A DNA stretch of 64,000 nt, taken from assembly GCA_951406725.2 (NCBI GenBank), contig OX597817.1:48484001-48548000 (forward strand). Direction: 5' to 3'. Shown one piece after another: positions 3,786-62,779 of this stretch; position 1 is the stretch's first letter; the number at the start of each line of letters is the position of its first letter. The notes below the pieces were generated by a model. It saw nothing but the letters and a program-made list of their open reading frames with translations, was not told where the DNA came from and ran no database searches. A program made the position numbers and the translations under genes. Source of the DNA: Octopus vulgaris (lineage: Eukaryota).

Positions 3786-3986
3786 TGTGTGTGTGTGTGT
3801 GTGTGTATGTATGTGTGCGTGTGTGTGCGTGTGTGTGTGCGTGTGCGTGTGTGTGTGTATAAAATTAAATAAAGAGGGTAGAAATTGATATTAATCAATT
3901 AAAACCAGTGGCTTAGCATATGTAAAAATCCGAAGATTAACAATTATATTACAAACAAAATTAAGAGGTCATTCCTCTCAATTTTG

Positions 3987-4069
<83 letters not shown>

Positions 4070-4490: not shown

Positions 4491-4972
4491 TATATATATC
4501 ATATAGAGGGCATTATTATACATAAATGCCACATGCTAGGAGGGACTCTAAAAGTTAAAACTACCAAAATAAATACTTATTTATTTTGGTAGTTTTGACT
4601 TTAAGTGTCCCTCCTAGCGTGTGGCATTTATGTATAGTAATGCCCTCTATATATTATAAATAAATATATTTAAGAGAAAAATTGGTGGAATTTTTTTCTC
4701 TTATGAGGTTTTTCACGCTAACTACTTGATAAATTCTTATAAAGATTTTATCCTATTTTAAAATTATATAAATATATATATAACATAAAGCGCATGTATC
4801 TACTATATCCATAAGGCTATGTGTATGTGTGTGCATCTGTGTGTGCGCCTGCATGTGTATATGGTATTTATAGTGAAAAGATTAATTGTGACTTCGAAGT
4901 TTTCGCTTAGTTACGTTAGTCAGACTATTCATAGGTATAGAGAGATCCTTTACGTATTTGACTGTTTTCCTA

Positions 4973-18900: not shown

Positions 18901-20520
18901 TAGCAGAGATACCCGGCGTTGCCCGGTTACATTCACTAGAAGAATTAGACTTTTCTGTTATATATATATATGGATACACACACACACACAGACACACACA
19001 TACACACACACACGCACACACAAATATATGTATATTAATATAAATACATGAAAGTACATGAAGTTTGTTAAAAAAAGGGGGATCATGTATATACCTCCTG
19101 GCTGTTGAGATTATAACACCTCGTTGTAAACAATGTTCCTTGTTTTTCCTTGTGGAGCATATACAAAAAGGTTTCTTTTGGTTCCTACTCTTGAGCAGCC
19201 AACATACAGTTGCCTATGCCAGAAGCAGGGCTCTTCCAAGAGAAGACCAGCTACAGAGAGGGTTTGACCCTGAGTTTTGTTAATGGACATGGCAATGCTG
19301 AGACGAAGGGGGAATTGCAGTCTTCTGAATGTAAATGGAATTTCTGCTCCTCGTGGAGTAAGAGGAAATCTTGGAATAAAGATGTCATCACCTTTTCCAC
19401 ATCCAGAAAGAATGATCGCCTCGATAACGTGTAATATCATTTTCTTTGTCACCAGTCGTGTTCCATTGCAAAGTCTTGGTGGTTCCAGATTGCGGAGTAG
19501 CATTACAGGAGTTCCAACTTTAAGTGGTAATATGTGTGGAGGTAGTTGAGGAGGGCTCCAGTGAATTGAGAAATTCAGGAGGATAGTTCACAACTTCATT
19601 TGTATCTGGAATTGTATCAACAGACTTGTAAGTGTGTATAGTGCCGAGAAAAGAATGCATTAGCTGTTGATTAATTTTTTAACAGCGATGTTTTTTGGAG
19701 CTAATATTGCTCTTTCACACAGACAATTGTGATTTTGGTAGTTTTGTGTGAAGGTGGGAAAGACTTTGTTTTTGAGTCATCTACAGAATTAACAACAGAG
19801 GAAAATGACCACACTTCCATTTGTCCTGCAGCATCGAGAGGCATCTTGCCTTCACCAAGTGTCAAAATGTTCTGTGCAAACTTTGTGGACATTTTGTCGC
19901 CGTGTAGCTGAGCTCTCATGTTAGTGGTGAGACTAAAGATGATGCCACAGTGTAGAGGACTTTAGGCATGCTTGAACTTCATCAGCTCTAGTGCCTTTCG
20001 GAATGACAGGAAGAGTTTGCCTGAAATAACCTGACAACAGAAGCGTTACACCTCCCATTGGAGCCTGACAGTCTCGGATGTCTTTCAGGGCTCTATCTAA
20101 TGCTTCCAAAGCTCCCTTGTGAGCCATAGTGCACTCATCCCAGACAATTACATGACACATTTTAAGTACTTGTCCCTGATCTGAGCTTTTATTGATGTTG
20201 CATGAAGGCATTTCGGATGCTGCTAAATTGAGAGGGAGTTTAAAAGTTGAGTGTGCTGTCCTGCCTCCGGGTAACAAAGTAGCAGCAATGCCAGAGGAGG
20301 CTACAGCTACTGCAATGTCCTGATGCTACCTAACTTCTGCAAGGAGAAGCTTTGTAATAAATGTTTTTCCTGTCCCTCCAGGAGCATCGAGGAAGAAGAT
20401 TCGTCCCTCGCGTTGGCGTACACTGTTAAGAATAGTTCTGTAGGCCTGCAGCTGGTCCGGAAGTAATTTAGGCTCATTTTCAACAATGTACTTTGAAAGC
20501 GCTTGTGTGTCGTAGGTTGT
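18900..20520 (-). mobile_element. 5'-truncated Helitron with intact 3' terminus
   Basis: Minus strand ends ccgggcaacgccgggtatctctgCTAG|t (subterminal GC-rich hairpin plus CTAG) downstream of the helicase. Confidence 0.85.
19111..20520 (-). pseudogene. Helitron Rep/Hel PIF1-like SF1 helicase domain, disrupted
   Basis: FLDAPGGTGKTF (Walker A), ASSGIAATLLPGGRTAHSTFKLP, IVWDECTM, GYFRQTLPV, MLLRNL..LCNGTRL, QFPLRLSIAMSINKTQGQTL, QLYVGCSRV; in-frame stops and frameshifts. Confidence 0.95.
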
Positions 20521-21825
20521 ATATATGTACAAAATCCACCGAGAAGGCTTTTGTTGGTCTGAAGCTACAGCAGAAGACACATGCCAAGTCACCACACAGT
20601 GGGACTGAACCCAGGACCATGTGTTTGGAACGTAGTTTGTTACCACACAGCCACACCTGCCCCTATGTATGTGTGTGTGTGTGTGCGTGTGTGCGTATGT
20701 GTATATGGGTAGATATATTATGCATGTATATATGTATATATATATATGTGTACATGTTACATGTACATCTATATATATACATCTACACATAAAATACAAA
20801 ATACAAAGTTATATCTTGATATCGCTAGTGATAACAATACTCAAAATATATAACATACTGGAATTGTAGGCCCGTCTCTTGCAATTTCGATCAATTGGAT
20901 CTTGTCCTCCCTCTTGTATAGAAGTGTACGGCTGCAGCGAAATTCATTTTTGGACTTTCTTCTATCGAAAGCATTTTAACAAAAATGCTTCCGTAAAGAC
21001 GGTGAAAATATTGTCAATTTTCCCAAACAGGGACACAATTCAATTTTTAAACAATAACGAAAGCCCCTACTCCGAAAGGGGAAGGGTTACGGTTTACAAT
21101 TATTTAACAAATGCAACACAACAACGTTTCCCTGACGAGGAACCAACAAACGTGATTACAATAGTCAAACAGTAATAATAATAACAACAAACCTTTTTAA
21201 TTTATCCCCATTTATGTGAAACCACTTATTCAAGTTCAAGTCATTGATGCAATTTTATACGAATTGCTAATACACACACACACACACACACATAATAAGG
21301 GTGAAAAATTGAATATTAATTTGATTAATATGAATTGAAAACCAGTGGTGTAGCATATAAGACCATAGCGGATCTTCCTCTCGCAAAAACGATGACCACT
21401 ATTAATGGCTCATCCCTGTTATATAATACTTTCACTTTAATAGTTTCACACTTGCAAAGAGAAAGTAGGAGAAAGTGTGGTGGTAATAGCAGGAGTAAAC
21501 CACTTGAAATGAGAGAGGCAAATCGTAAAATATTGAGTTTTCTCGAATTTTTGCTTAATTGGGAGTCAAATTGAAAAAGCTTTACATGCCATGACCCAAT
21601 CGAATCTACTTGGAAAAATCATAGGTAAATTCCAATTGAAGAAATTCTATATTGTAGAATTGTATTAAAAAGAAACATGGGAACAGGCAGAGAAAATCTG
21701 CCTTTTATCATAAGAGATATACCGGAGTAAACACATAAATGTGAAACAAGGTGGAAAAAAGAGTACTCAAATACCAGTGGTAGAGTAATATGCTTTATTT
21801 AAAGCAGCAGAAAATTCAACAAAAC

Positions 21826-24894: not shown

Positions 24895-24964
<70 letters not shown>

Positions 24965-25097
24965 TCAATATCGGTGGCTTATATTTATTTGCTGCCGATA
25001 AATTTGGCGCGAGTGCGACGATTTGAAAATTTTAGGTCAGATATTGCCGAGGTAGCAAGAGGAATGCCTCGTGAAAAATATCTGTTCCGACTTGGCT

Positions 25098-25204
25098 ATT
25101 TCTTACTGATGAGTCTAAGGGCCTATGGTGGATTGGCTTGATTTAATTTAATCAGGTTAGTTTACCATTAAACGGTAGATGAAACGGTGCATCGTCTAAG
25201 AAAT
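25098..25204 (+). ncRNA. Type I hammerhead ribozyme, 491-bp unit 1
   Basis: Stem I atttctta/taagaaat; CTGATGA at 25106-25112; stem II gtcta/tagat with a long hairpin insert; GAAA; stem III ACGG-TGCA-TCGT; GUC cleavage triplet at 25194-25196. Confidence 0.9.
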
Positions 25205-25588
25205 TACAGGGTAAAAGTTTTTCAATTTTCTCCTGGTTTACGGAATTAATGTTATTTTGCGGTTAAAGCTTTTGGCTGTTATTTCTAGTGGGTGAATGGC
25301 CTATTATGGCCGTTCCTTGATTGTGATGTTGAACGTAAAAATGGTTTATGACTATTTAATTTTTTCCTACTAGGCCGCTGGTGGCAAAAGAATTCTACAA
25401 AATTTTTTTTGCCACCATATATTGATTAATTATGAATTTTCTGGTTAGTTCCGTAATGGAATCGGTGGCTTATATTTATTTGCTGCCGATAAATTTGGCG
25501 CGAGTGCGACGATTTGAAAATTTTAGGTCAGATATTGCCGAGGTAGCAAGAGGAATGCCTCGTGAAAAATATCTGTTCCGACTTGGCT

Positions 25589-25695
25589 ATTTCTTACTGA
25601 TGAGTCTAAGGGCCTATGGTGGATTGGCTTGATTTAATTTAATCAGGTTAGTTTACCATTAAACGGTAGATGAAACGGTGCATCGTCTAAGAAAT
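25589..25695 (+). ncRNA. Type I hammerhead ribozyme, 491-bp unit 2
   Basis: Same motif as 25098-25204. Confidence 0.9.
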
Positions 25696-26079
25696 TACAG
25701 GGTAAAAGTTTTTCAATTTTCTCCTGGTTTACGGAATTAATGTTATTTTGCGGTTAAAGCTTTTGGCTGTTATTTCTAGTGGGTGAATGGCCTATTATGG
25801 CCGTTCCTTGATTGTGATGTTGAACGTAAAAATGGTTTATGACTATTTAATTTTTTCCTACTAGGCCGCTGGTGGCAAAAGAATTCTACAAAATTTTTTT
25901 TGCCACCCTATATTGATTAATTATGAATTTTCTGGTTAGTTCCGTAATGGAATCGGTGGCTTATATTTATTTGCTGCCGATAAATTTGGCGCGAGTGCGA
26001 CGATTTGAAAATTTTAGGTCAGATATTGCCGAGGTAGCAAGAGGAATGCCTCGTGAAAAATATCTGTTCCGACTTGGCT

Positions 26080-26186
26080 ATTTCTTACTGATGAGTCTAA
26101 GGGCCTATGGTGGATTGGCTTGATTTAATTTAATCAGGTTAGTTTACCATTAAACGGTAGATGAAACGGTGCATCGTCTAAGAAAT
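26080..26186 (+). ncRNA. Type I hammerhead ribozyme, 491-bp unit 3
   Basis: Same motif as 25098-25204. Confidence 0.9.
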
Positions 26187-26569
26187 TACAGGGTAAAAGT
26201 TTTTCAATTTTCTCCTGGTTTACGGAATTAATGTTATTTTGCGGTTAAAGCTTTTGGCTGTTATTTCTAGTGGGTGAATGGCCTATTATGGCCGTTCCTT
26301 GATTGTGATGTTGAACGTAAAAATGGTTTATGACTATTTAATTTTTTCCTACTAGGCCGCTGGTGGCAAAAGAATTCTACAAAATTTTTTTGCCACCCTA
26401 TATTGATTAATTATGAATTTTCTGGTTAGTTCCGTAATGGAATCGGTGGCTTATATTTATTTGCTGCCGATAAATTTGGCGCGAGTGCGACGATTTGAAA
26501 ATTTTAGGTCAGATATTGCCGAGGTAGCAAGAGGAATGCCTCGTGAAAAATATCTGTTCCGACTTGGCT

Positions 26570-26676
26570 ATTTCTTACTGATGAGTCTAAGGGCCTATGG
26601 TGGATTGGCTTGATTTAATTTAATCAGGTTAGTTTACCATTAAACGGTAGATGAAACGGTGCATCGTCTAAGAAAT
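26570..26676 (+). ncRNA. Type I hammerhead ribozyme, 491-bp unit 4
   Basis: Same motif as 25098-25204. Confidence 0.9.
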
Positions 26677-26794
26677 TACAGGGTAAAAGTTTTTCAATTT
26701 TCTCCTGGTTTACGGAATTAATGTTATTTTGCGGTTAAAGCTTTTGGCTGTTATTTCTAGTGGGTGAATGGCCTATTATGGCCGTTCCTTGATT

Positions 26795-26834
<40 letters not shown>

Positions 26835-26978
26835 GAGGCGCAATGGCCCAGTGGTTAGGGTAGCGGACTCGCGGTCGTAGGATCGCGGTTTCGATTCCAC
26901 GTAAATTTCACGAGCAGGCTGTTCCGTTGATCGGATCAACCGGAACCCTCGTCGTCGTAACCGACGGAGTGCTTCCAT

Positions 26979-27064
<86 letters not shown>

Positions 27065-39379: not shown

Positions 39380-39396
39380 TTTTATTTTATAGAAGG

Positions 39397-39447
39397 AGCT
39401 TCTACAGGACTAGAACTGTTTCATTCAAAAGAAATCATCAGGAAGCT
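39397..39447 (-). ncRNA. Inverted copy of the 46929-46979 hammerhead
   Basis: Reverse complement of 46929-46979. Confidence 0.8.
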
Positions 39448-39683
39448 AGGTGACAAGAATAGTTTTGGCATTTATACATTTAGGCAGGTTTAAAGGGGTG
39501 GTGGTGGGGGACTTTTTGGGGGTAGGCATGGCGCAAACTATCATTCTTAGGGGAATCAGTGATAAAGTAGATAAAAGAATAAATAGAATAATAGAGTTTA
39601 GGTAAATAAGGAGACTCTCACTTATACATATATATATATACATATACACACACACATACATATACACACACACATACATATAT

Positions 39684-39734
<51 letters not shown>

Positions 39735-39841
39735 TACATACACACATACATCCATATACACATGTACATATGCCCCCATTTACATACATCTACGTACACA
39801 CCTATACCCATACTCATACATACACACATATATCTACACAC

Positions 39842-40174
39842 ATCGGAATGACGTCAAACAGCTTTAAGACTCGTTGGTACGCCCACGCACATTCGTTCCG
39901 GCGACCTGACAAATCTAACCAAACTACTCTCGCCGCCCACATCTGGTACCTTAAAAGGAACTCCATCCCCTTCAAGATCAAGTGGAGACTACTACAGAGG
40001 GCGCGTTCGTACACAGGAGGCCATACCTGCTGTGACCTTTGCATTTCTGAGAGCCTGGAGATCTTGTTCGCCAAAGGCCCTCTCCTCAACAAGATCTCGG
40101 AACACTCCCCAAATTGTATGCACAAAATTTATGCAAACTACAAAAACTACAGACCCACCCGGCAACCCGATTGA
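39842..40174 (+). pseudogene. Penelope-like element GIY-YIG endonuclease, C-terminal fragment
   Basis: IGMTSNSFKTRWYAHAHSF...TTLAAHIWYLKRNSIPFKIKWRLL...CDLCISESLEI...LLNKISE...CMH matches the PLE endonuclease tail as I recall it (YIG, FKxR, TxLSxHIW, CxLC, LNK, CxH). Confidence 0.85.
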
Positions 40175-40239
40175 CGACACCCCACCTCCACCGTTCCCTC
40201 AGCACCCCCAATTACCTTCTCTCCTAAGACTATTCACAT

Positions 40240-40376
40240 ATTGTATGTGTACACATGTATATATGTATAGATATGTATGGGTGGAGGTATGAATATACGT
40301 ATGTATGTGTGTGCGTGTATTTACATGCGTGTATATATATGTGTATGTATATATGTGTGTATGTACATGTATGTGG

Positions 40377-40426
<50 letters not shown>

Positions 40427-40845
40427 ATATATATATATGTGTGCATATGTGTATATGTGTATATGTGTATATGTGTATATATGTATATATATATATATAT
40501 GTACGCTTGTGTGTTTATGTATATGTAGGTATGTAGATTTATGTGTATGTGTATGTATTTAGGTATATATATATACATATGTGTAAATAGGTATACATGT
40601 GTGTGTTTATATGTATGTATCCGTCTGTATGATGGGTAATTTCACGTATATATATTTATTATTTATTATTTGAGTATGCATGTATGTATATATGTATATG
40701 TTTGTATGCATGTGTGTATTTATGTATATATAGATGCGCGTGTGTGCGTGTATGTGTATGCATATGTATATACATATGTATACATTTATGTATGCGTATG
40801 TGTGTTGGTGTATATATGTGTATATATGTGTATTTGTGTGCGTTC

Positions 40846-40899
<54 letters not shown>

Positions 40900-41012
40900 A
40901 TATATATATGTGTGTGTGTGTATATGCCTGTATACCTCTGTGTAGATGTATGTATATGGGTGTGCGTACGGATGTATATGTATGTGTATGTAGATGTGTG
41001 TGTATGTATATG

Positions 41013-41063
<51 letters not shown>

Positions 41064-41810
41064 GTGTGTATATATGTGTATGTGTATATGTATGTATATA
41101 TGTATGGGTATATATGTGTATATGTATGTATGTGTATGTGTGTATATGTATGGACTTGTTGAGTTTCTTTTTTCATATATGTAGATAGATGTGTGTGCGT
41201 GTATGTGCGTAGATATGCATATGTGTATTAGTATGCGCATGTGTTTATATATGTGTATGTATATGTAGGTATATGCGTACGTGTATGTGTGTATATATAT
41301 ATATATATGTATATATATGTATATATATGTATATGTATATATATGTGTATATGTATATTTGTGTATATATATGGACTAGTCTTCTTTGTGTGTGTAGATG
41401 TATGTGTATGCGTGTAGATATGAATTTGTAGGTACGTGTACGTATGTGTATATACGTGCATGTATGTATATGTATGTGTGTAGGTAGATATATGTAGGTA
41501 TGCTTTTATGTACACGTGTATGCGTGCATGTGTGCAAATATGTACTTACAGGCGTATGGATGCGTATATATGCGTATGTATGCTTATATGCACAAATGTC
41601 TGTATATAGGCATATGCGTCTATACATGCGGGCAGAGGTTCATGTGTGTTTATGTGTACGGAAGTACATTTATATATGTGGTTTTGTGTGTACATAGTTA
41701 TATGTGAAATTCGGTACACTTATGTATGTATGAATATAACACGTGCGTCTGTGTATGTGTATGAGTGTGCGTGTGAGTGTGTATGCGTGTGTGAGTGTTT
41801 GTGTTCGTAT
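40240..41810. repeat. 1.6-kb degenerate TA/TG alternating purine-pyrimidine tract
   Basis: Directly visible; lies immediately 3' of the GIY-YIG fragment. Confidence 0.9.
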
Positions 41811-42041
41811 CAGTGGGAAGGAAGATAGAAAGGAAGGGAGAGGGGCAATAAATGGATTCTTTAGGCCAGCTAGGCTAGATCCCTTGGGAGAACCCTACTT
41901 CAGTGCCGGCCTGGTTGGTGGAGGTCAAAATAAAAACAAAAATAAAAGTAAAAATGAATATAAAAATAAAATGAAAAAAAGGGAAGAAATGTGTGTGAAT
42001 GTGTGTGCATGTATATGCATATGTATGTGTATGTATATATG

Positions 42042-42119
<78 letters not shown>

Positions 42120-42130
42120 TGTGTGTATGA

Positions 42131-42162
<32 letters not shown>

Positions 42163-42687
42163 TTGTAAAAAATGAAGTTCGAAAATGCTGCTGTATTATA
42201 CAATTTTTAATTTTTATATATACATTATAACATGTTTCAGTTCCTGAAATGAACTTTATCAAAAAAAGTTATATATAAAAAAAGACAGCTCATGCCGTCA
42301 AACACAAGAAATTCATTTATAATACACAACGGAGTCAGACATCTTAGAGTTCATGTATAGTTGATATATAGTTCATGTATAGTTGATATATAGTTTGAAG
42401 TATATGTTCAAAGTGTTCGATGCAGTGGCCCACGGTGGCGATACGTATTCAATACAAAAAACAGATCAAAGTGGTGGAAAGCGGTCAATACAGAAGATTG
42501 ATGTTTCCGAAAGAGCGAGGAATTCATTTTTACCTTAAGCAAATGTGATGACCCATGGTGGATGTTCGCTGGGTGGTTCTAATGAGTTTTTGTGAAGTGC
42601 TCGGTTTTATAATGCCTGTTAGGTGGTCAATCCAGTGTAGCGTGACGTCATCAACGTTTTGACCAATCGTTTCGTTAGGTGGCTTTA

Positions 42688-42900
42688 GTCAAGTAGAACG
42701 GGACGTCATCATTATTTTGACCAATCGCTGCATTATAACTGCCTCTTGTTTGTTTCCTGTTTTGACCAGTCGCTTCGTTAGTCAAGTAGAACGGGACGTC
42801 ATCATTATTTTGACCAATCGCTGCATTATAACTGCCTCTTGTTTGTTTCCTGTTTTGACCAGTCGCTTCGTTAATCAAGCAGAACGGGACGTCATGCAGA
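42688..42900 (+). repeat. 93-bp minisatellite (~2.3 units) rich in GACGTCA and CCAAT
   Basis: Units start at 42688, 42781 and 42874. Confidence 0.85.
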
Positions 42901-43247
42901 TTCTGCCCAATCACGACTTATAGCTACATTAGATCTGCCCCCTGTCTGTACTTGTTAGGCGACTATTCAAGCAGAAAAGGACGTCATCAATATTCTGACT
43001 AATGACTGTCCCCTGTTTGTATCCTGTCCATTCTAGCTGAGCTAGACGTCATATATATATATATAGATATGTGAGCGTGTGTATATGGGGGTGTATATCC
43101 TCTTTTATATTTGTTTTTATATTTATTTATTTTTATATATATGTGTGTAGATATATGTGTGTATGTATGAGTATGGGTATGGGTGTGTACGTAGATGTAT
43201 GTAAATGGGGGCATATGTACATGTGTATATGGATGTATGTGTATGTA

Positions 43248-43300
<53 letters not shown>

Positions 43301-43522
43301 GTGTATGTATATATATATATATGTGTGTGTGTGTATGTATGTGTGTGTGTATATGTATATATATATATACCAATTAAGGACTGAACACGAAAAGTGGACA
43401 GTCAACATGCTAGATATAGACGTCAAATCGTCATTCTCCACAAAAGATTATGTTCTCAGATCAAACTCAACACAAAACCATAGCAATAAACAAGTGAAAA
43501 ATATACGAAATAAAATAATTAC

Positions 43523-43587
43523 CCATGTACTAACTTAGTTTCAGCTGTTATTTTCCGCAAGGAAAACTGCAGCCATCATCAGCATGG
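43523..43587 (-). ncRNA. Type I hammerhead ribozyme (copies also at 44028-44092, 44533-44597 and 45038-45102)
   Basis: Reverse complement of the 45403-45467 motif. Confidence 0.85.
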
Positions 43588-45402
43588 TCCGTTATAAATG
43601 TAATTTGCTGGACTAAATGCAAACACGATACCGAAATATCGCGTGCATGGAGTTCAGCCTATTACATTTGAATATATCTTTCAAATGCCTTTACTTTGGC
43701 GCGTTGAGACCCGAGAAAACTAGCCTGCAGCTAATAATTAGCAGCAGTTAATTTATCGGTTAGAGAACATTTATTTATATAAAATTAATTAAGGGTAGAA
43801 ATTGATATTTATCAATTAAGACCAGTGGTCTAGCATATTAAAAAAGAATCCGAAGATTAAAATATTTATATATACCAATTAAGGACTGAACACGAAAAGT
43901 GGACAGTCAACATGCTAGATATAGACGTCAAATCGTCATTCTCCACAAAAGATTATGTTCTCAGATCAAACTCAACACAAAACCATAGCAATAAACAAGT
44001 GAAAAATATACGAAATAAAATAATTACCCATGTACTAACTTAGTTTCAGCTGTTATTTTCCGCAAGGAAAACTGCAGCCATCATCAGCATGGTCCGTTAT
44101 AAATGTAATTTGCTGGACTAAATGCAAACACGATACCGAAATATCGCGTGCATGGAGTTCAGCCTATTACATTTGAATATATCTTTCAAATGCCTTTACT
44201 TTGGCGCGTTGAGACCCGAGAAAACTAGCCTGCAGCTAATAATTAGCAGCAGTTAATTTATCGGTTAGAGAACATTTATTTATATAAAATTAATTAAGGG
44301 TAGAAAGTGATATTTATCAATTAAGACCAGTGGTCTAGCATATTAAAAAAGAATCCGAAGATTAAAATATTTATATATACCAATTAAGGACTGAACACGA
44401 AAAGTGGACAGTCAACATGCTAGATATAGACGTCAAATCGTCATTCTCCACAAAAGATTATGTTCTCAGATCAAACTCAACACAAAACCATAGCAATAAA
44501 CAAGTGAAAAATATACGAAATAAAATAATTACCCATGTACTAACTTAGTTTCAGCTGTTATTTTCCGCAAGGAAAACTGCAGCCATCATCAGCATGGTCC
44601 GTTATAAATGTAATTTGCTGGACTAAATGCAAACACGATACCGAAATATCGCGTGCATGGAGTTCAGCCTATTACATTTGAATATATCTTTCAAATGCCT
44701 TTACTTTGGCGCGTTGAGACCCGAGAAAACTAGCCTGCAGCTAATAATTAGCAGCAGTTAATTTATCGGTTAGAGAACATTTATTTATATAAAATTAATT
44801 AAGGGTAGAAATTGATATTTATCAATTAAGACCAGTGGTCTAGCATATTAAAAAAGAATCCGAAGATTAAAATATTTATATATACCAATTAAGGACTGAA
44901 CACGAAAAGTGGACAGTCAACATGCTAGATATAGACGTCAAATCGTCATTCTCCACAAAAGATTATGTTCTCAGATCAAACTCAACACAAAACCATAGCA
45001 ATAAACAAGTGAAAAATATACGAAATAAAATAATTACCCATGTACTAACTTAGTTTCAGCTGTTATTTTCCGCAAGGAAAACTGCAGCCATCATCAGCAT
45101 GGTCCGTTATAAATGTAATTTGCTGGACTAAATGCAAACACGATACCGAAATATCGCGTGCATGGAGTTCAGCCTATTACATTTGAATATATCTTTCAAA
45201 TGCCTTTACTTTGGCGCGTTGAGACCTGCAGCTAATAATTAGCAGCAGTTAATTATTAGCTGCAGGCTAGTTTTCTCGGGTCTCAACGCGCCAAAGTAAA
45301 GGCATTTGAAAGATATATTCAAATGTAATAGGCTGAACTCCATGCACGCGATATTTCGGTATCGTGTTTGCATTTAGTCCAGCAAATTACATTTATAACG
45401 GA

Positions 45403-45467
45403 CCATGCTGATGATGGCTGCAGTTTTCCTTGCGGAAAATAACAGCTGAAACTAAGTTAGTACATGG
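45403..45467 (+). ncRNA. Type I hammerhead ribozyme (copies also at 45908-45972 and 46412-46476)
   Basis: Stem I ccatg/catgg; CTGATGA plus an extra T; stem II ggctg/cagct enclosing ttttcc-ttgc-ggaaaa; GAAA; stem III ACTA-AGT-TAGT; GUA triplet at 45460-45462. Confidence 0.85.
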
Positions 45468-46928
45468 GTAATTATTTTATTTCGTATATTTTTCACTTGT
45501 TTATTGCTATGGTTTTGTGTTGAGTTTGATCTGAGAACATAATCTTTTGTGGAGAATGACGATTTGACGTCTATATCTAGCATGTTGACTGTCCACTTTT
45601 CGTGTTCAGTCCTTAATTGGTATATATAAATATTTTAATCTTCGGATTCTTTTTTAATATGCTAGACCACTGGTCTTAATTGATAAATATCAATTTCTAC
45701 CCTTAATTAATTTTATATAAATAAATTTTCTGTAACCGATAAATTAACTGCTGCTAATTATTAGCTGCAGGCTAGTTTTCTCGGGTCTCAACGCGCCAAA
45801 GTAAAGGCATTTGAAAGATATATTCAAATGTAATAGGCTGAACTCCATGCACGCGATATTTCGGTATCGTGTTTGCATTTAGTCCAGCAAATTACATTTA
45901 TAACGGACCATGCTGATGATGGCTGCAGTTTTCCTTGCGGAAAATAACAGCTGAAACTAAGTTAGTACATGGGTAATTATTTTATTTCGTATATTTTTCA
46001 CTTGTTTATTGCTATGGTTTTGTGTTGAGTTTGATCTGAGAACATAATCTTTTGTGGAGAATGACGATTTGACGTCTATATCTAGCATGTTGACTGTCCA
46101 CTTTTCGTGTTCAGTCCTTAATTGGTATATATAAATATTTTAATCTTCGGATTCTTTTTAATATGCTAGACCACTGGTCTTAATTGATAAATATCAATTT
46201 CTACCCTTAATTAATTTTATATAAATAAATTTTCTGTAACCGATAAATTAACTGCTGCTAATTATTAGCTGCAGGCTAGTTTTCTCGGGTCTCAACGCGC
46301 CAAAGTAAAGGCATTTGAAAGATATATTCAAATGTAATAGGCTGAACTCCATGCACGCGATATTTCGGTATCGTGTTTGCATTTAGTCCAGCAAATTACA
46401 TTTATAACGGACCATGCTGATGATGGCTGCAGTTTTCCTTGCGGAAAATAACAGCTGAAACTAAGTTAGTACATGGGTAATTATTTTATTTCGTATATTT
46501 TTCACTTGTTTATTGCTATGGTTTTGTGTTGAGTTTGATCTGAGAACATAATCTTTTGTGGAGAATGACGATTTGACGTCTATATCTAGCATGTTGACTG
46601 TCCACTTTTCGTGTTCAGTCCTTAATTGGTATATATAAATATTTTAATCTTCGGATTCTTTTTTAATATGCTAGACCACTGGTCTTAATTGATAAATATC
46701 AATTTCTACCCTTAATTAATTTTATATAAATTTTGTATATATATATATGTATAAGTGAGAGTCTCCTTATTTACCTAAACTCTATTATTCAATTTATTCT
46801 TTTATCTACTTTATCACTGATTCCCCTAAGAATGATAGTTTGCGCCATGCCTACCCCCAAAAAGTCCCCCACCACCACCCCTTTAAACCTGCCTAAATGT
46901 ATAAATGCCAAAACTATTCTTGTCACCT

Positions 46929-46979
46929 AGCTTCCTGATGATTTCTTTTGAATGAAACAGTTCTAGTCCTGTAGAAGCT
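46929..46979 (+). ncRNA. Minimal type I hammerhead in a Penelope-like pseudo-LTR
   Basis: agcttc CTGATGA t-ttc-tttt-gaa-t GAAA cag-ttctagtc-ctg TA gaagct: 6-bp stem I, GUA triplet. Confidence 0.8.
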
Positions 46980-47061
46980 CCTTCTATAAAATAAATTAAT
47001 TTACTCTGCTATGTATTGAGTACCTTATTTACTGTGGTTAACACCGACTCAACCCGGGACC

Positions 47062-60843: not shown

Positions 60844-61810
60844 GTATATCATATATATTATATATATATACATATATACGACAAGCTTCTTTCAGTTTCT
60901 GTCTATCAAATCCGCTCACAAGGCTTTGGTCGGCCCGAGGCTACAGTAGAAGATACTTGGCCAAGGTGCCACGCAGTGGGACTGAACCCGGAACCAAGTG
61001 GCTAGTAAGCAAGCTACTTACCACACAGCCACTCCTGCGCAACCTTTAAAACTGTTCTGAAAATGGCGATATGACATTATTTCAGCTATGAGAATAGGTG
61101 AGAAAAAAAATTCAATTTAGATGTTTTCTGATGTTATTTGCATATTATGTTTTTTCTACTACCCGAAATTTTGGCGGAGGAGTGGGAGAAGTCGATTAAA
61201 TCGACCCCAGTACGCAACAGGTAATTAATTTATCGACCCGAAAGGATGAAAGGCAATGTTGACCTCGACGGAATCTGAACTCAGAACGTAAAGACAGACG
61301 AAATGCCGCTAAGCATTTTGCCTGGCGTTCCGACATTCTTGCCACCTCACCGCCTTATTTTATTTGTAGTAATATTATTTAGCAGGGTTTAAATTTTCTA
61401 TTTTCAGATAGCTTGAAGATATAGCTCTGTTGTGTTGCTTCCATTTTGCAGTCTGAGGCTCATCAGGTACACCCATAGATAAAGTTGTGTCTCACTAAAG
61501 ATCTTGCGTACCGACTGCCATGTTGTTATATGGCCGTCTAAATAGTATCAATAGGTGGGGATTAGAAATAGTGAACCACTTAGACACACAATATAACTGA
61601 ACCTTATGCATCAAGAAAACCTCGGATAGGCGCAGGACTGGCTGTGTGGTAAGTAGCTTGCTTACCAACCACATAGTTCCGGGTTCAGTCCCACTGCGTG
61701 GCACCTTGGGCATGTGCCTTCTAATATAGCCTCGGGCAGACCAAAGCCTTGTGAGTGGATTTGGTAGACGGAAATGGAAAGAAGCCTGTCGTATATATGT
61801 ATGTATGTAT

Positions 61811-62709
61811 TTCCGTTTTGCATATGTGAATTACAGGGTTTGTCGTGCCCGGAGTCCCACTTTGATAGAAATAAGCATTCTTGACTGCTATTTCTATTTT
61901 TTCGGTATGCGGTCAAGCAACCTGTTGCTTGTCCCTTTTTCTTATATACAATATATATACTGAACTTTACAGAAGTTCCTGCCGGTAATCGGCTATATTT
62001 ACATACCGAATTCTACCAGTAAATAATTGTGGTTTTTTTAAAAACCTTTATAGAAATTATTTACTCTTATTATTATATTACTAATTGGATTTTTCACTCC
62101 CTTACGACAACCAAATGGTTCCTACTCATATGGAACTATTTTTGTAGTGCGCATGGCAAAATTTTGGAGGGAAGATTTACGAATTCAAACGTCTATGTAG
62201 GTTTAGCCTTTGCTCACTTTCTTCAAATATTTTGATGTCGCATGGTCAGAAGGTTTGAGGTACGTAGCATTTGATAAATCTATGATAAATCTATTTCAAT
62301 GGAAAGCTGTGCTGAAGAAGGATGTGAAATATATATGCAATGTATATGAAATATATATCAAAAATATATATGAAATATATATTCAATATGTTTATAATCC
62401 AGAAACATGATGTTCACAGATAACCACCAGCCTTCGTTTTCGTTATCTATCCCTTCCGTTTTGCATATGTGAATTACAGGGTTTGTCGTGCCCGGAGTCC
62501 CACTTTGATAGAAATAAGCATTCTTGACTGCTATTTCTATTTTTTCGGTATGCGGTCAAGCAACCTGTTGCTTGTCCCTTTTTCTTATATACAATATATA
62601 TACTGAACTTTACAGAAGTTCCTGCCGGTAATCGGCTATATTTACATACCGAATTCTACCAGTAAATAATTGTGGTTTTTTTAAAAACCTTTATAGAAAT
62701 TATTTACTC

Positions 62710-62719
<10 letters not shown>
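61811..62719 (+). repeat. Direct duplication of ~266 bp (61811-62076 vs 62454-62719)
   Basis: Near-identical copies 643 bp apart. Confidence 0.9.

Positions 62720-62779
<60 letters not shown>

Follow-up and report, generated by a model that had tools for sequence, protein, structure and literature searches.

A covarying predicted RNA domain between two preferred insertion ends of hammerhead repeats in Octopus vulgaris, a candidate cis element for Penelope-like reverse transcription

How animal retrozymes return into DNA is an open question, and Penelope-like elements (PLEs) are the suspected helpers. LINE/SINE pairs share a 3' stem-loop that is bound by the LINE reverse transcriptase (RT). 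For the non-LTR retrozymes of Metazoa, units of 150-450 bp have been described (Cervera and de la Pena, 2020, PMC7229834), and a 2026 preprint gives retrozyme units of 51-972 bp (Li, Clavereau and Pollet, bioRxiv 10.64898/2026.07.22.740005). Both sources and a 2020 review (PMC7761336) proposed PLEs as the mobiliser, while that review sees no conserved motif in metazoan retrozymes that would point to the mobiliser. According to the preprint, retrozymes resemble the terminal repeats (pLTRs) of their partners, and eight of nine Xenopus elements showed no cleavage. For a rotifer, PMC3846280 reports no cross-mobilisation between PLE types.

For the anole Poseidon element PAc, Frangieh et al. (2024, PMC11167929) describe reverse transcription in vitro that starts at two internal sites bracketing the tail, and a protein, predicted to be a dimer, that cuts both strands of AT-rich DNA. 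The insertions described here resemble those of PAc, Pen2a_Av (PMC3846280) and Neptune/Naiad (PMC8557442) in having an inverted 5'-truncated arm, a target that is AT-rich or (TA)n, and a one-sided tail that lies between two fixed ends and contains a stem-loop (the initiation stem-loop of PAc being AC-rich). They differ in the length of the tail (~90-110 nt, versus 30-40 in these systems) and in its location within a non-coding parasite, where the signal would be a proposed multi-helix domain kept across diverged families, versus ORF sequence in EN-bearing PLEs. In contrast to the metazoan retrozymes of PMC7761336, several groups here have a covarying domain in common, by which two insertion ends are fixed. 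Both retrozymes and PLE tails are already known; the present domain is a covarying cis domain of a known element class and is linked to a known insertion signature. The titles and abstracts searched, a scope that left most subscription papers outside, described no conserved non-ribozyme domain at retrozyme ends.

The window analysed in this study is a stretch of 64,000 nucleotides of Octopus vulgaris contig OX597817.1. An earlier note on it had reported a module, CTAVVCCRCTGGT followed by a variable hairpin and ACCCT, and both sequence and coordinates were confirmed. The window contains 12 matches of CTAVVCCRCTGGT with at most one mismatch, 11 of them exact, against 0.41 expected (0 of 100 shuffles reached 12); the exact copies are distributed among a 505-bp array (six), a 491-bp array (three) and two relics. 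Throughout the genome (2.8 Gb), the pattern CTAVVCCRCTGGT-N15-45-ACCCT matched 10,264 times (5,146 + 5,118), compared with 9 (5 + 4) for the reversed control pattern. The 505-family module at 45662-45703 (+), which has five further copies in the window, is internal to its array, and the three 491-family copies are located at 25370 (reading ACCAT), 25861 and 26352. Those of the relics are found on the minus strand at 3875-3916 and 21298-21353.

The description of conserved flanks around a variable hairpin held with respect to abundance over the control, but the letters of the flanks are not invariant. A GAT..ATC group, named for the letters that replace GGT..ACC at the base of the hairpin, had 2,520 genome matches versus 0 for its control, and an AGT..ACT family presents a third form of this base. 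With the linker left free, 7,554 matches versus 440 control matches were found, and among 75 distinct loci of this pattern in the first 29 Mb of contig C1, 60 had exactly RCCRCT; the 14 loci lacking the exact linker that were inspected comprised 12 members with one or two changes and two chance matches. A covariance model recovered all 11 window copies as well as more divergent ones at 4609-4764 and 61896-62721. Further domain variants with a AACTACTT or CACTACTT linker were noticed at L191:3425 (-) and L127:739 (+), and the domain superfamily extends beyond every pattern used here. A metagenome scan gave seven matches, none significant under the covariance model, which we took as chance. A sequence near-identical to the 505 unit (window 45760-46255) is present in runs of four coded organism labels, and thus the 505 family is not confined to one label.

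By their anatomy, the repeats that carry the module fit non-LTR retrozymes. Like the metazoan non-LTR retrozymes described before, they are tandem units, AT-rich and without coding capacity, each with a single type I hammerhead motif, and are dispersed as monomers to multimers; their unit lengths (473-643 bp) exceed the range of PMC7229834 and fall within that of the 2026 preprint. No ORF of at least 120 aa was present in the arrays, and the insertions end in head-to-head arms in (TA)n instead of LTR-type ends. The hammerhead core and its three stems were read from the sequence pattern in seven copies of the 505 unit (for example at 45403..45467, +, with the predicted cut between 45462 and 45463) and in four of the 491 unit, whereas Rfam hammerhead models gave no match to either unit. 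The proposed association of module and hammerhead was borne out in a sample of 100 hits, namely the first 100 genome matches listed, all fetched, which span the first 29 Mb of contig C1. In 28 of them, a strict core was located 221-274 nt upstream of the module, many others being truncated before that point, and the hammerhead-to-module spacing is 232-288 nt in 9 of 10 unit types. In public contigs, unit-to-unit joints fit tandem DNA as well as circles, and none of the listed runs with 505-unit sequence was recorded as RNA.

The families had been called otherwise unrelated. This applies to 505 versus 491, which have collinear layouts and, outside the domain, no significant similarity (z = 2.1; profile test negative); identity within groups is 55-90%. 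Both relics, however, belong to the 505 group, so that the four examples first cited represent two groups.

The motif itself is the conserved 3' part of a larger predicted RNA domain of ~140 nt in these non-coding hammerhead repeats. The proposed signal is therefore larger than the motif, the predicted domain starting ~90 nt upstream of it. According to fold prediction, the order is the 5' strand of a helix P1, hairpins P2 and P3, the 3' strand of P1 with CTAG, an unpaired CCRCU linker, hairpin P4, CT and an AU-rich run. CTAG would pair with a strand 75-105 nt upstream, and P1 would thereby close a junction holding P2 and P3. In the 505 family (plus strand), the P1 strands are predicted at 45576..45586 and 45656..45666 (the latter containing CTAG), P2 followed by CCT at 45587..45613, P3 with a UUCG loop at 45637..45648, the conserved CCACT linker, predicted to be unpaired, at 45667..45671, and the variable P4, closed by GGT/ACC and followed by CT, at 45672..45703. 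Two AT-rich stretches, 45614..45634 behind P2 and 45704..45725 behind P4, hold what we call the short and the long 3' junction, respectively. In the 491 array, the domain occupies 25775-25909 and recurs in the neighbouring units. GC content of the domain is 0.28-0.35, and Rfam gave no match at gathering score, its weak matches being far under the cut-offs.

P1 was supported in copies that had not been selected for it. At least 7 bp were found in 44 of 72 distinct CTAG copies (9/72 in a control window) and in 4 of 7 CTAA copies (0/7), and P1 was missing in 10 of 10 CTAC copies. Among GAT-group loci, where CTGG often stands in place of CTAG, 18 of 30 had P1, compared with 1 of 30 in the control. 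In a MAFFT alignment of 17 representatives, both partners differ between copies in five of nine P1 pairs, and none of 500 shuffles reached the covariation score; since these rows (17 of 18 clusters) were picked for having P1, the percentage paired in this alignment is biased. RNAalifold found P1 unaided and preferred an RCC/GGT mini-hairpin over the P4 base, the GGT/ACC pairs being invariant within this alignment. The double changes to GAT..ATC and AGT..ACT favour the P4 base over the mini-hairpin.

The same letters could be read as a signal for the host machinery. TAGRCCRCTGGT is similar to the consensus of a tRNA-type A box, as for RNA polymerase III transcription; no B box follows, though, and T runs occur inside P4. 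Alternatively, CTAG could be a spliceosomal 3' splice site with branch point, pyrimidine tract and YAG: upstream of the motif, the sequence TGACTAA-pyrimidines-CTAG is found in several families, and introns occur in PLE terminal repeats (PMC8557442). On the other hand, CTAG pairs in P1 and covaries to CTAA or CTGG, changes by which the AG is removed or moved, and the double changes of the domain likewise count against a splice acceptor. No joint or loose end fell at CTAG among the contig rows listed for both families, a point of small weight given that the RNA status of these runs was guessed. Neither signal is reflected in an Rfam match at gathering level, and we consider both highly improbable.

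The insertion ends fall mainly at two fixed points. Insertions are arranged head-to-head, with two arms meeting at variable 5' ends and with the outer 3' ends in microsatellite. In 64 of the 100 sampled hits, a microsatellite starts at most 40 nt past ACCCT, in 61 of these 64 at 5-26 nt, with a median of 11; these 64 include eight CTAC-type copies that are linked to a Helitron and hence not independent. The remaining 36 hits comprise 19 inside tandem arrays, 10 that continue through most of another unit and seven that end otherwise; three hits reach the next microsatellite elsewhere (+114, +124 and +244). We then typed 100 microsatellite-abutting ends on family references that extend from 330 nt upstream of the module to 40 nt downstream of it: 61 were long (just past ACCCT), 36 short (25-47 nt before CTAG, directly past P2; 28 nt in the 505 family) and three other. 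Hence the module does lie near insertion ends, as had been suggested, but a second fixed end precedes CTAG.

Both ends could be typed in 30 two-armed insertions, and in every one of them a long end is paired with an upstream end (short in 29 cases, at -63 in one); none of the 30 was long/long. Because sampling needed a module, short/short insertions without one could have been missed, while long/long insertions could not. This one-of-each pattern places the module between two likely starts of reverse transcription. Long and short ends alike sit ~8-15 nt past a hairpin and CC(C)T, a spacing that is kept across groups of differing sequence. In addition, public contigs from several studies have loose ends into (TA)n at 45633 (4 of 4 runs) and 45718-45723 for the 505 family, and likewise at 25818-25819 and 25924 for the 491 family, the RNA status of the runs being guessed in both cases. 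The head-to-head arm with a one-sided tail, seen in 30/30 two-armed insertions and in the window's 491 array, is the signature of EN+ PLEs, in agreement with the probably Penelope-like RT/endonuclease proposed before.

The 505 insertion of the window (43357..46735, both strands) lies in a (TA)6 target and consists of an inverted minus arm with its short end at ~43357 and a plus arm whose long end is at 46735. This (TA)6 starts 23 nt past the last ACCCT, and not ~28 nt as first estimated, which is atypical compared with the median of 11 nt. A paralogous empty site, with the two flanks joined across (TA)6, was identified at 39380..39843 (-). At this one locus, (TA)6 is single in the empty site and present on both sides of the filled one, which fits staggered cuts ~12 bp apart (a ~12-bp duplication), although microhomology blurs the length. 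The 491 insertion (24961..26799, both strands) has a 12-nt inverted stub that represents the long end (24961-24972, derived from just 3' of ACCCT, as had been described) and a 3.7-unit array running to the short end; its right end at 26799 precedes a module rather than following one. A small two-armed relic at 3858..3990 (-), the long end of which runs into (CA)n, belongs to the 505 group, sharing 83% identity with the 505 unit across 101 nt, and has the UUCG hairpin upstream that was noted before. The tiny two-armed relic at 21292..21428 (-) is a 505-group piece of the CTAC variant without a P1 partner. It is a passenger in a Helitron: the downstream flank is common to five other loci, and PIF1 helicase frames follow.

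Two further elements had been overlooked, including a two-armed element of the GAT..ATC variant at 4495..4764 (domain at 4609-4764, +; inverted short arm on the minus strand) and a repeat of ~643-bp units of the AGT..ACT variant at 61810..62721 (+), with domains at 61896-62076 and 62539-62721 and a hammerhead motif at 62307-62419. The Helitron (window 19111-21450, -) and its copies at L003, L009, L181, L234 and L236 carry the tiny retrozyme insertion near the 5' end and have amplified it along, and related copies (L027-L029, L233 and L235) have the same head and different downstream sequence. At 26835-26980, a tRNA-like head joined to a short 3' part is inserted in (TA)n directly after the 491 array. 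The 505 array itself resides in a 5'-truncated family-B PLE (39380-46995), recognisable by an endonuclease fragment (39851-40171), an inverted terminal copy and a minimal hammerhead (46928-46979). The microsatellite-rich 3' UTR of this PLE hosts a family-A relic (~42160-43050, -) besides the array, and PLE 3' UTRs serve as landing sites for other (TA)n-targeting elements.

With a probability of roughly 0.6, the domain is a cis element bound by a trans-acting Penelope-like RT-endonuclease that thereby starts reverse transcription of the retrozymes. We infer such recognition from the position of the domain and its covariation. The unit would be transcribed, cut by its hammerhead and probably circularised; a PLE protein would then bind the fold, probably contacting the unpaired RCYRCY(U) linker and the base of P4, and nick both strands of a (TA)n run. 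From each nick, cDNA may be primed on an AU-rich stretch that follows a hairpin and CC(C)U at a distance of 8-15 nt, one start lying behind P2 (short end) and the other behind P4 (long end). Joining of the two cDNAs at variable ends would give one short-ended and one long-ended arm, and the module would constitute the ~90-110-nt one-sided tail between the two starts. This scheme was modelled on PAc, for which two internal starts, double-strand cutting and a predicted dimer are described (PMC11167929); transcription, circularisation, binding, priming and the dimer are steps that we infer. Two points speak for caution. The short-end cDNA would start upstream of the motif, so that the motif is not copied. 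Moreover, the stretches at both junctions are rich in AU, and where the ends fall may thus be due in part to microhomology with (TA)n.

In another explanation, the domain is kept for the RNA's own life (folding, ligation, stability or binding of host proteins) and AU-rich single strands simply anneal most easily to nicked (TA)n. Whole units do fold much better than their shuffled versions (z = -7.0 and -5.8), TA-like letters of the element overlap with both junctions, and the domain is missing from the ends of the nine PLE families examined below. However, 97 of 100 ends fall in two windows, which means that insertions hardly ever end at the other TATA/ATAT stretches of the surveyed part, and passive annealing is not expected to give the strict rule of one long and one short end or a CC(C)T-to-junction spacing kept across differing groups. 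We regard this explanation as rather unlikely.

Protein, Pfam and DNA searches yielded nine PLE families (A-I), represented by the best-scoring copies per query; Poseidon and Naiad were not among the queries, and a partner may thus have been missed. Neither the pattern nor the covariance model detected the module at the own ends of these nine families, with D-G known from 1-4 truncated loci each and F and G scanned only ~1.3 kb past the stop. In families A, B, H and I, the elements themselves end in (TA)n at a short and a long end, and their tails measure ~36-70 nt. Applied to 100 PLE loci, the covariance model gave 19 matches; those at 11 loci were neighbouring insertions, and three were weak (E >= 0.44). 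The enrichment at hammerheads and insertion ends on which the earlier note had staked its proposal holds, and the expected presence in terminal repeats of autonomous PLEs was not seen in the nine families. No pLTR matching the retrozymes was found in them either, in contrast to Xenopus as reported in the preprint. The partner-pLTR likeness reported elsewhere and the reported lack of cross-mobilisation in a rotifer count against a PLE acting in trans when nine families lack the domain.

Several candidate links between the module and PLEs were rejected. In family B, 16 of 40 loci contain a truncated module variant ~300 nt past the stop, which is nested there as a two-armed insertion at ~3 kb from the end of B itself; the older B copy of the window is without it; instead of a terminal signal, it is a nested passenger in the middle of the 3' UTR. 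A B subfamily with this retrozyme fragment (L139, L140, L141 and L146) has spread it further. Family A was suggested by an endonuclease fragment upstream of the module in L018, but family-A ends have no module. An apparent pLTR-ORF-pLTR arrangement at L245, with two modules 6.2 kb apart, proved to be a segmental duplication; inside it, an intronless 221-codon frame (L245:4770-5432), dCMP deaminase-like by eye, is a possible retrocopy. At L227:3490-5300, a retrozyme arm is joined head-to-head to a family-H fragment with no microsatellite between them, and this hybrid, found in 1 of 20 family-H loci, was not taken as evidence.

The module could also have been inherited from the terminal repeat of a PLE family, ancestral or not sampled here, that is the dedicated partner, and persist as its remnant. 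The collinear unit layouts and the similar hammerhead-to-module spacing across groups agree with this, as does a PLE survey made of best-scoring copies per query without Poseidon or Naiad. However, an RT or endonuclease frame of its own was attached to the module in 0 of 100 hits and 0 of 30 GAT-group loci, and descent alone leaves the paired changes and the unchanged linker unexplained when similarity between groups is no longer detectable in the remainder of the unit. Such an origin appears quite unlikely to us; it is compatible with recognition by a trans-acting PLE enzyme and differs on origin only.

With regard to recognition in trans, a further, more tentative idea is that the domain might be a two-handed docking scaffold evolved by the retrozymes, whose two hairpin-CCU-AU-rich units, alike in structure, would seat the halves of a dimeric PLE RT and allow one circle to be copied from both starts at once. 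Mimicking a shape and not the sequence of a partner, such a scaffold could give many retrozyme families access to a single PLE enzyme or to several that are unrelated. If this is true, no mobilisation signal of animal retrozymes would have been defined before it, and it would also constitute a portable tag for insertion by PLEs. As in LINE/SINE pairs, a conserved 3' structure in a non-autonomous element would recruit the RT of another element; unlike these pairs, the retrozymes lack a poly(A) or other simple tail at the 3' end, have head-to-head arms and two likely internal starts, and share no visible structure with the partner. The domain provides a motif pointing to the helper, with start points at base level and natural paired variants that define mutants. 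Since the genome contains intact young PLE ORFs (781, ~1,200 and 717 codons) and an in vitro assay exists (PMC11167929), the link is directly testable and may explain the inverted arms and tails of PLEs.

Some features of these PLE families were recorded in addition. At L146:5662-7934 and in many near-identical family-B copies, the endonuclease part occupies a separate 225-codon frame, which follows a C run one base shorter than in L140; this is either a spreading defective subfamily or recoding. In family A (L061-L080), a second frame of up to 479 codons lies upstream of, and overlaps, the 781-codon RT-endonuclease frame, and the 36-nt tail contains a palindromic hairpin. Family I (L285-L308) is very young: its 717-codon ORF and 69-nt tail occur in copies with at least 124 matches at 99-100% identity, including tandems and inverted pairs.
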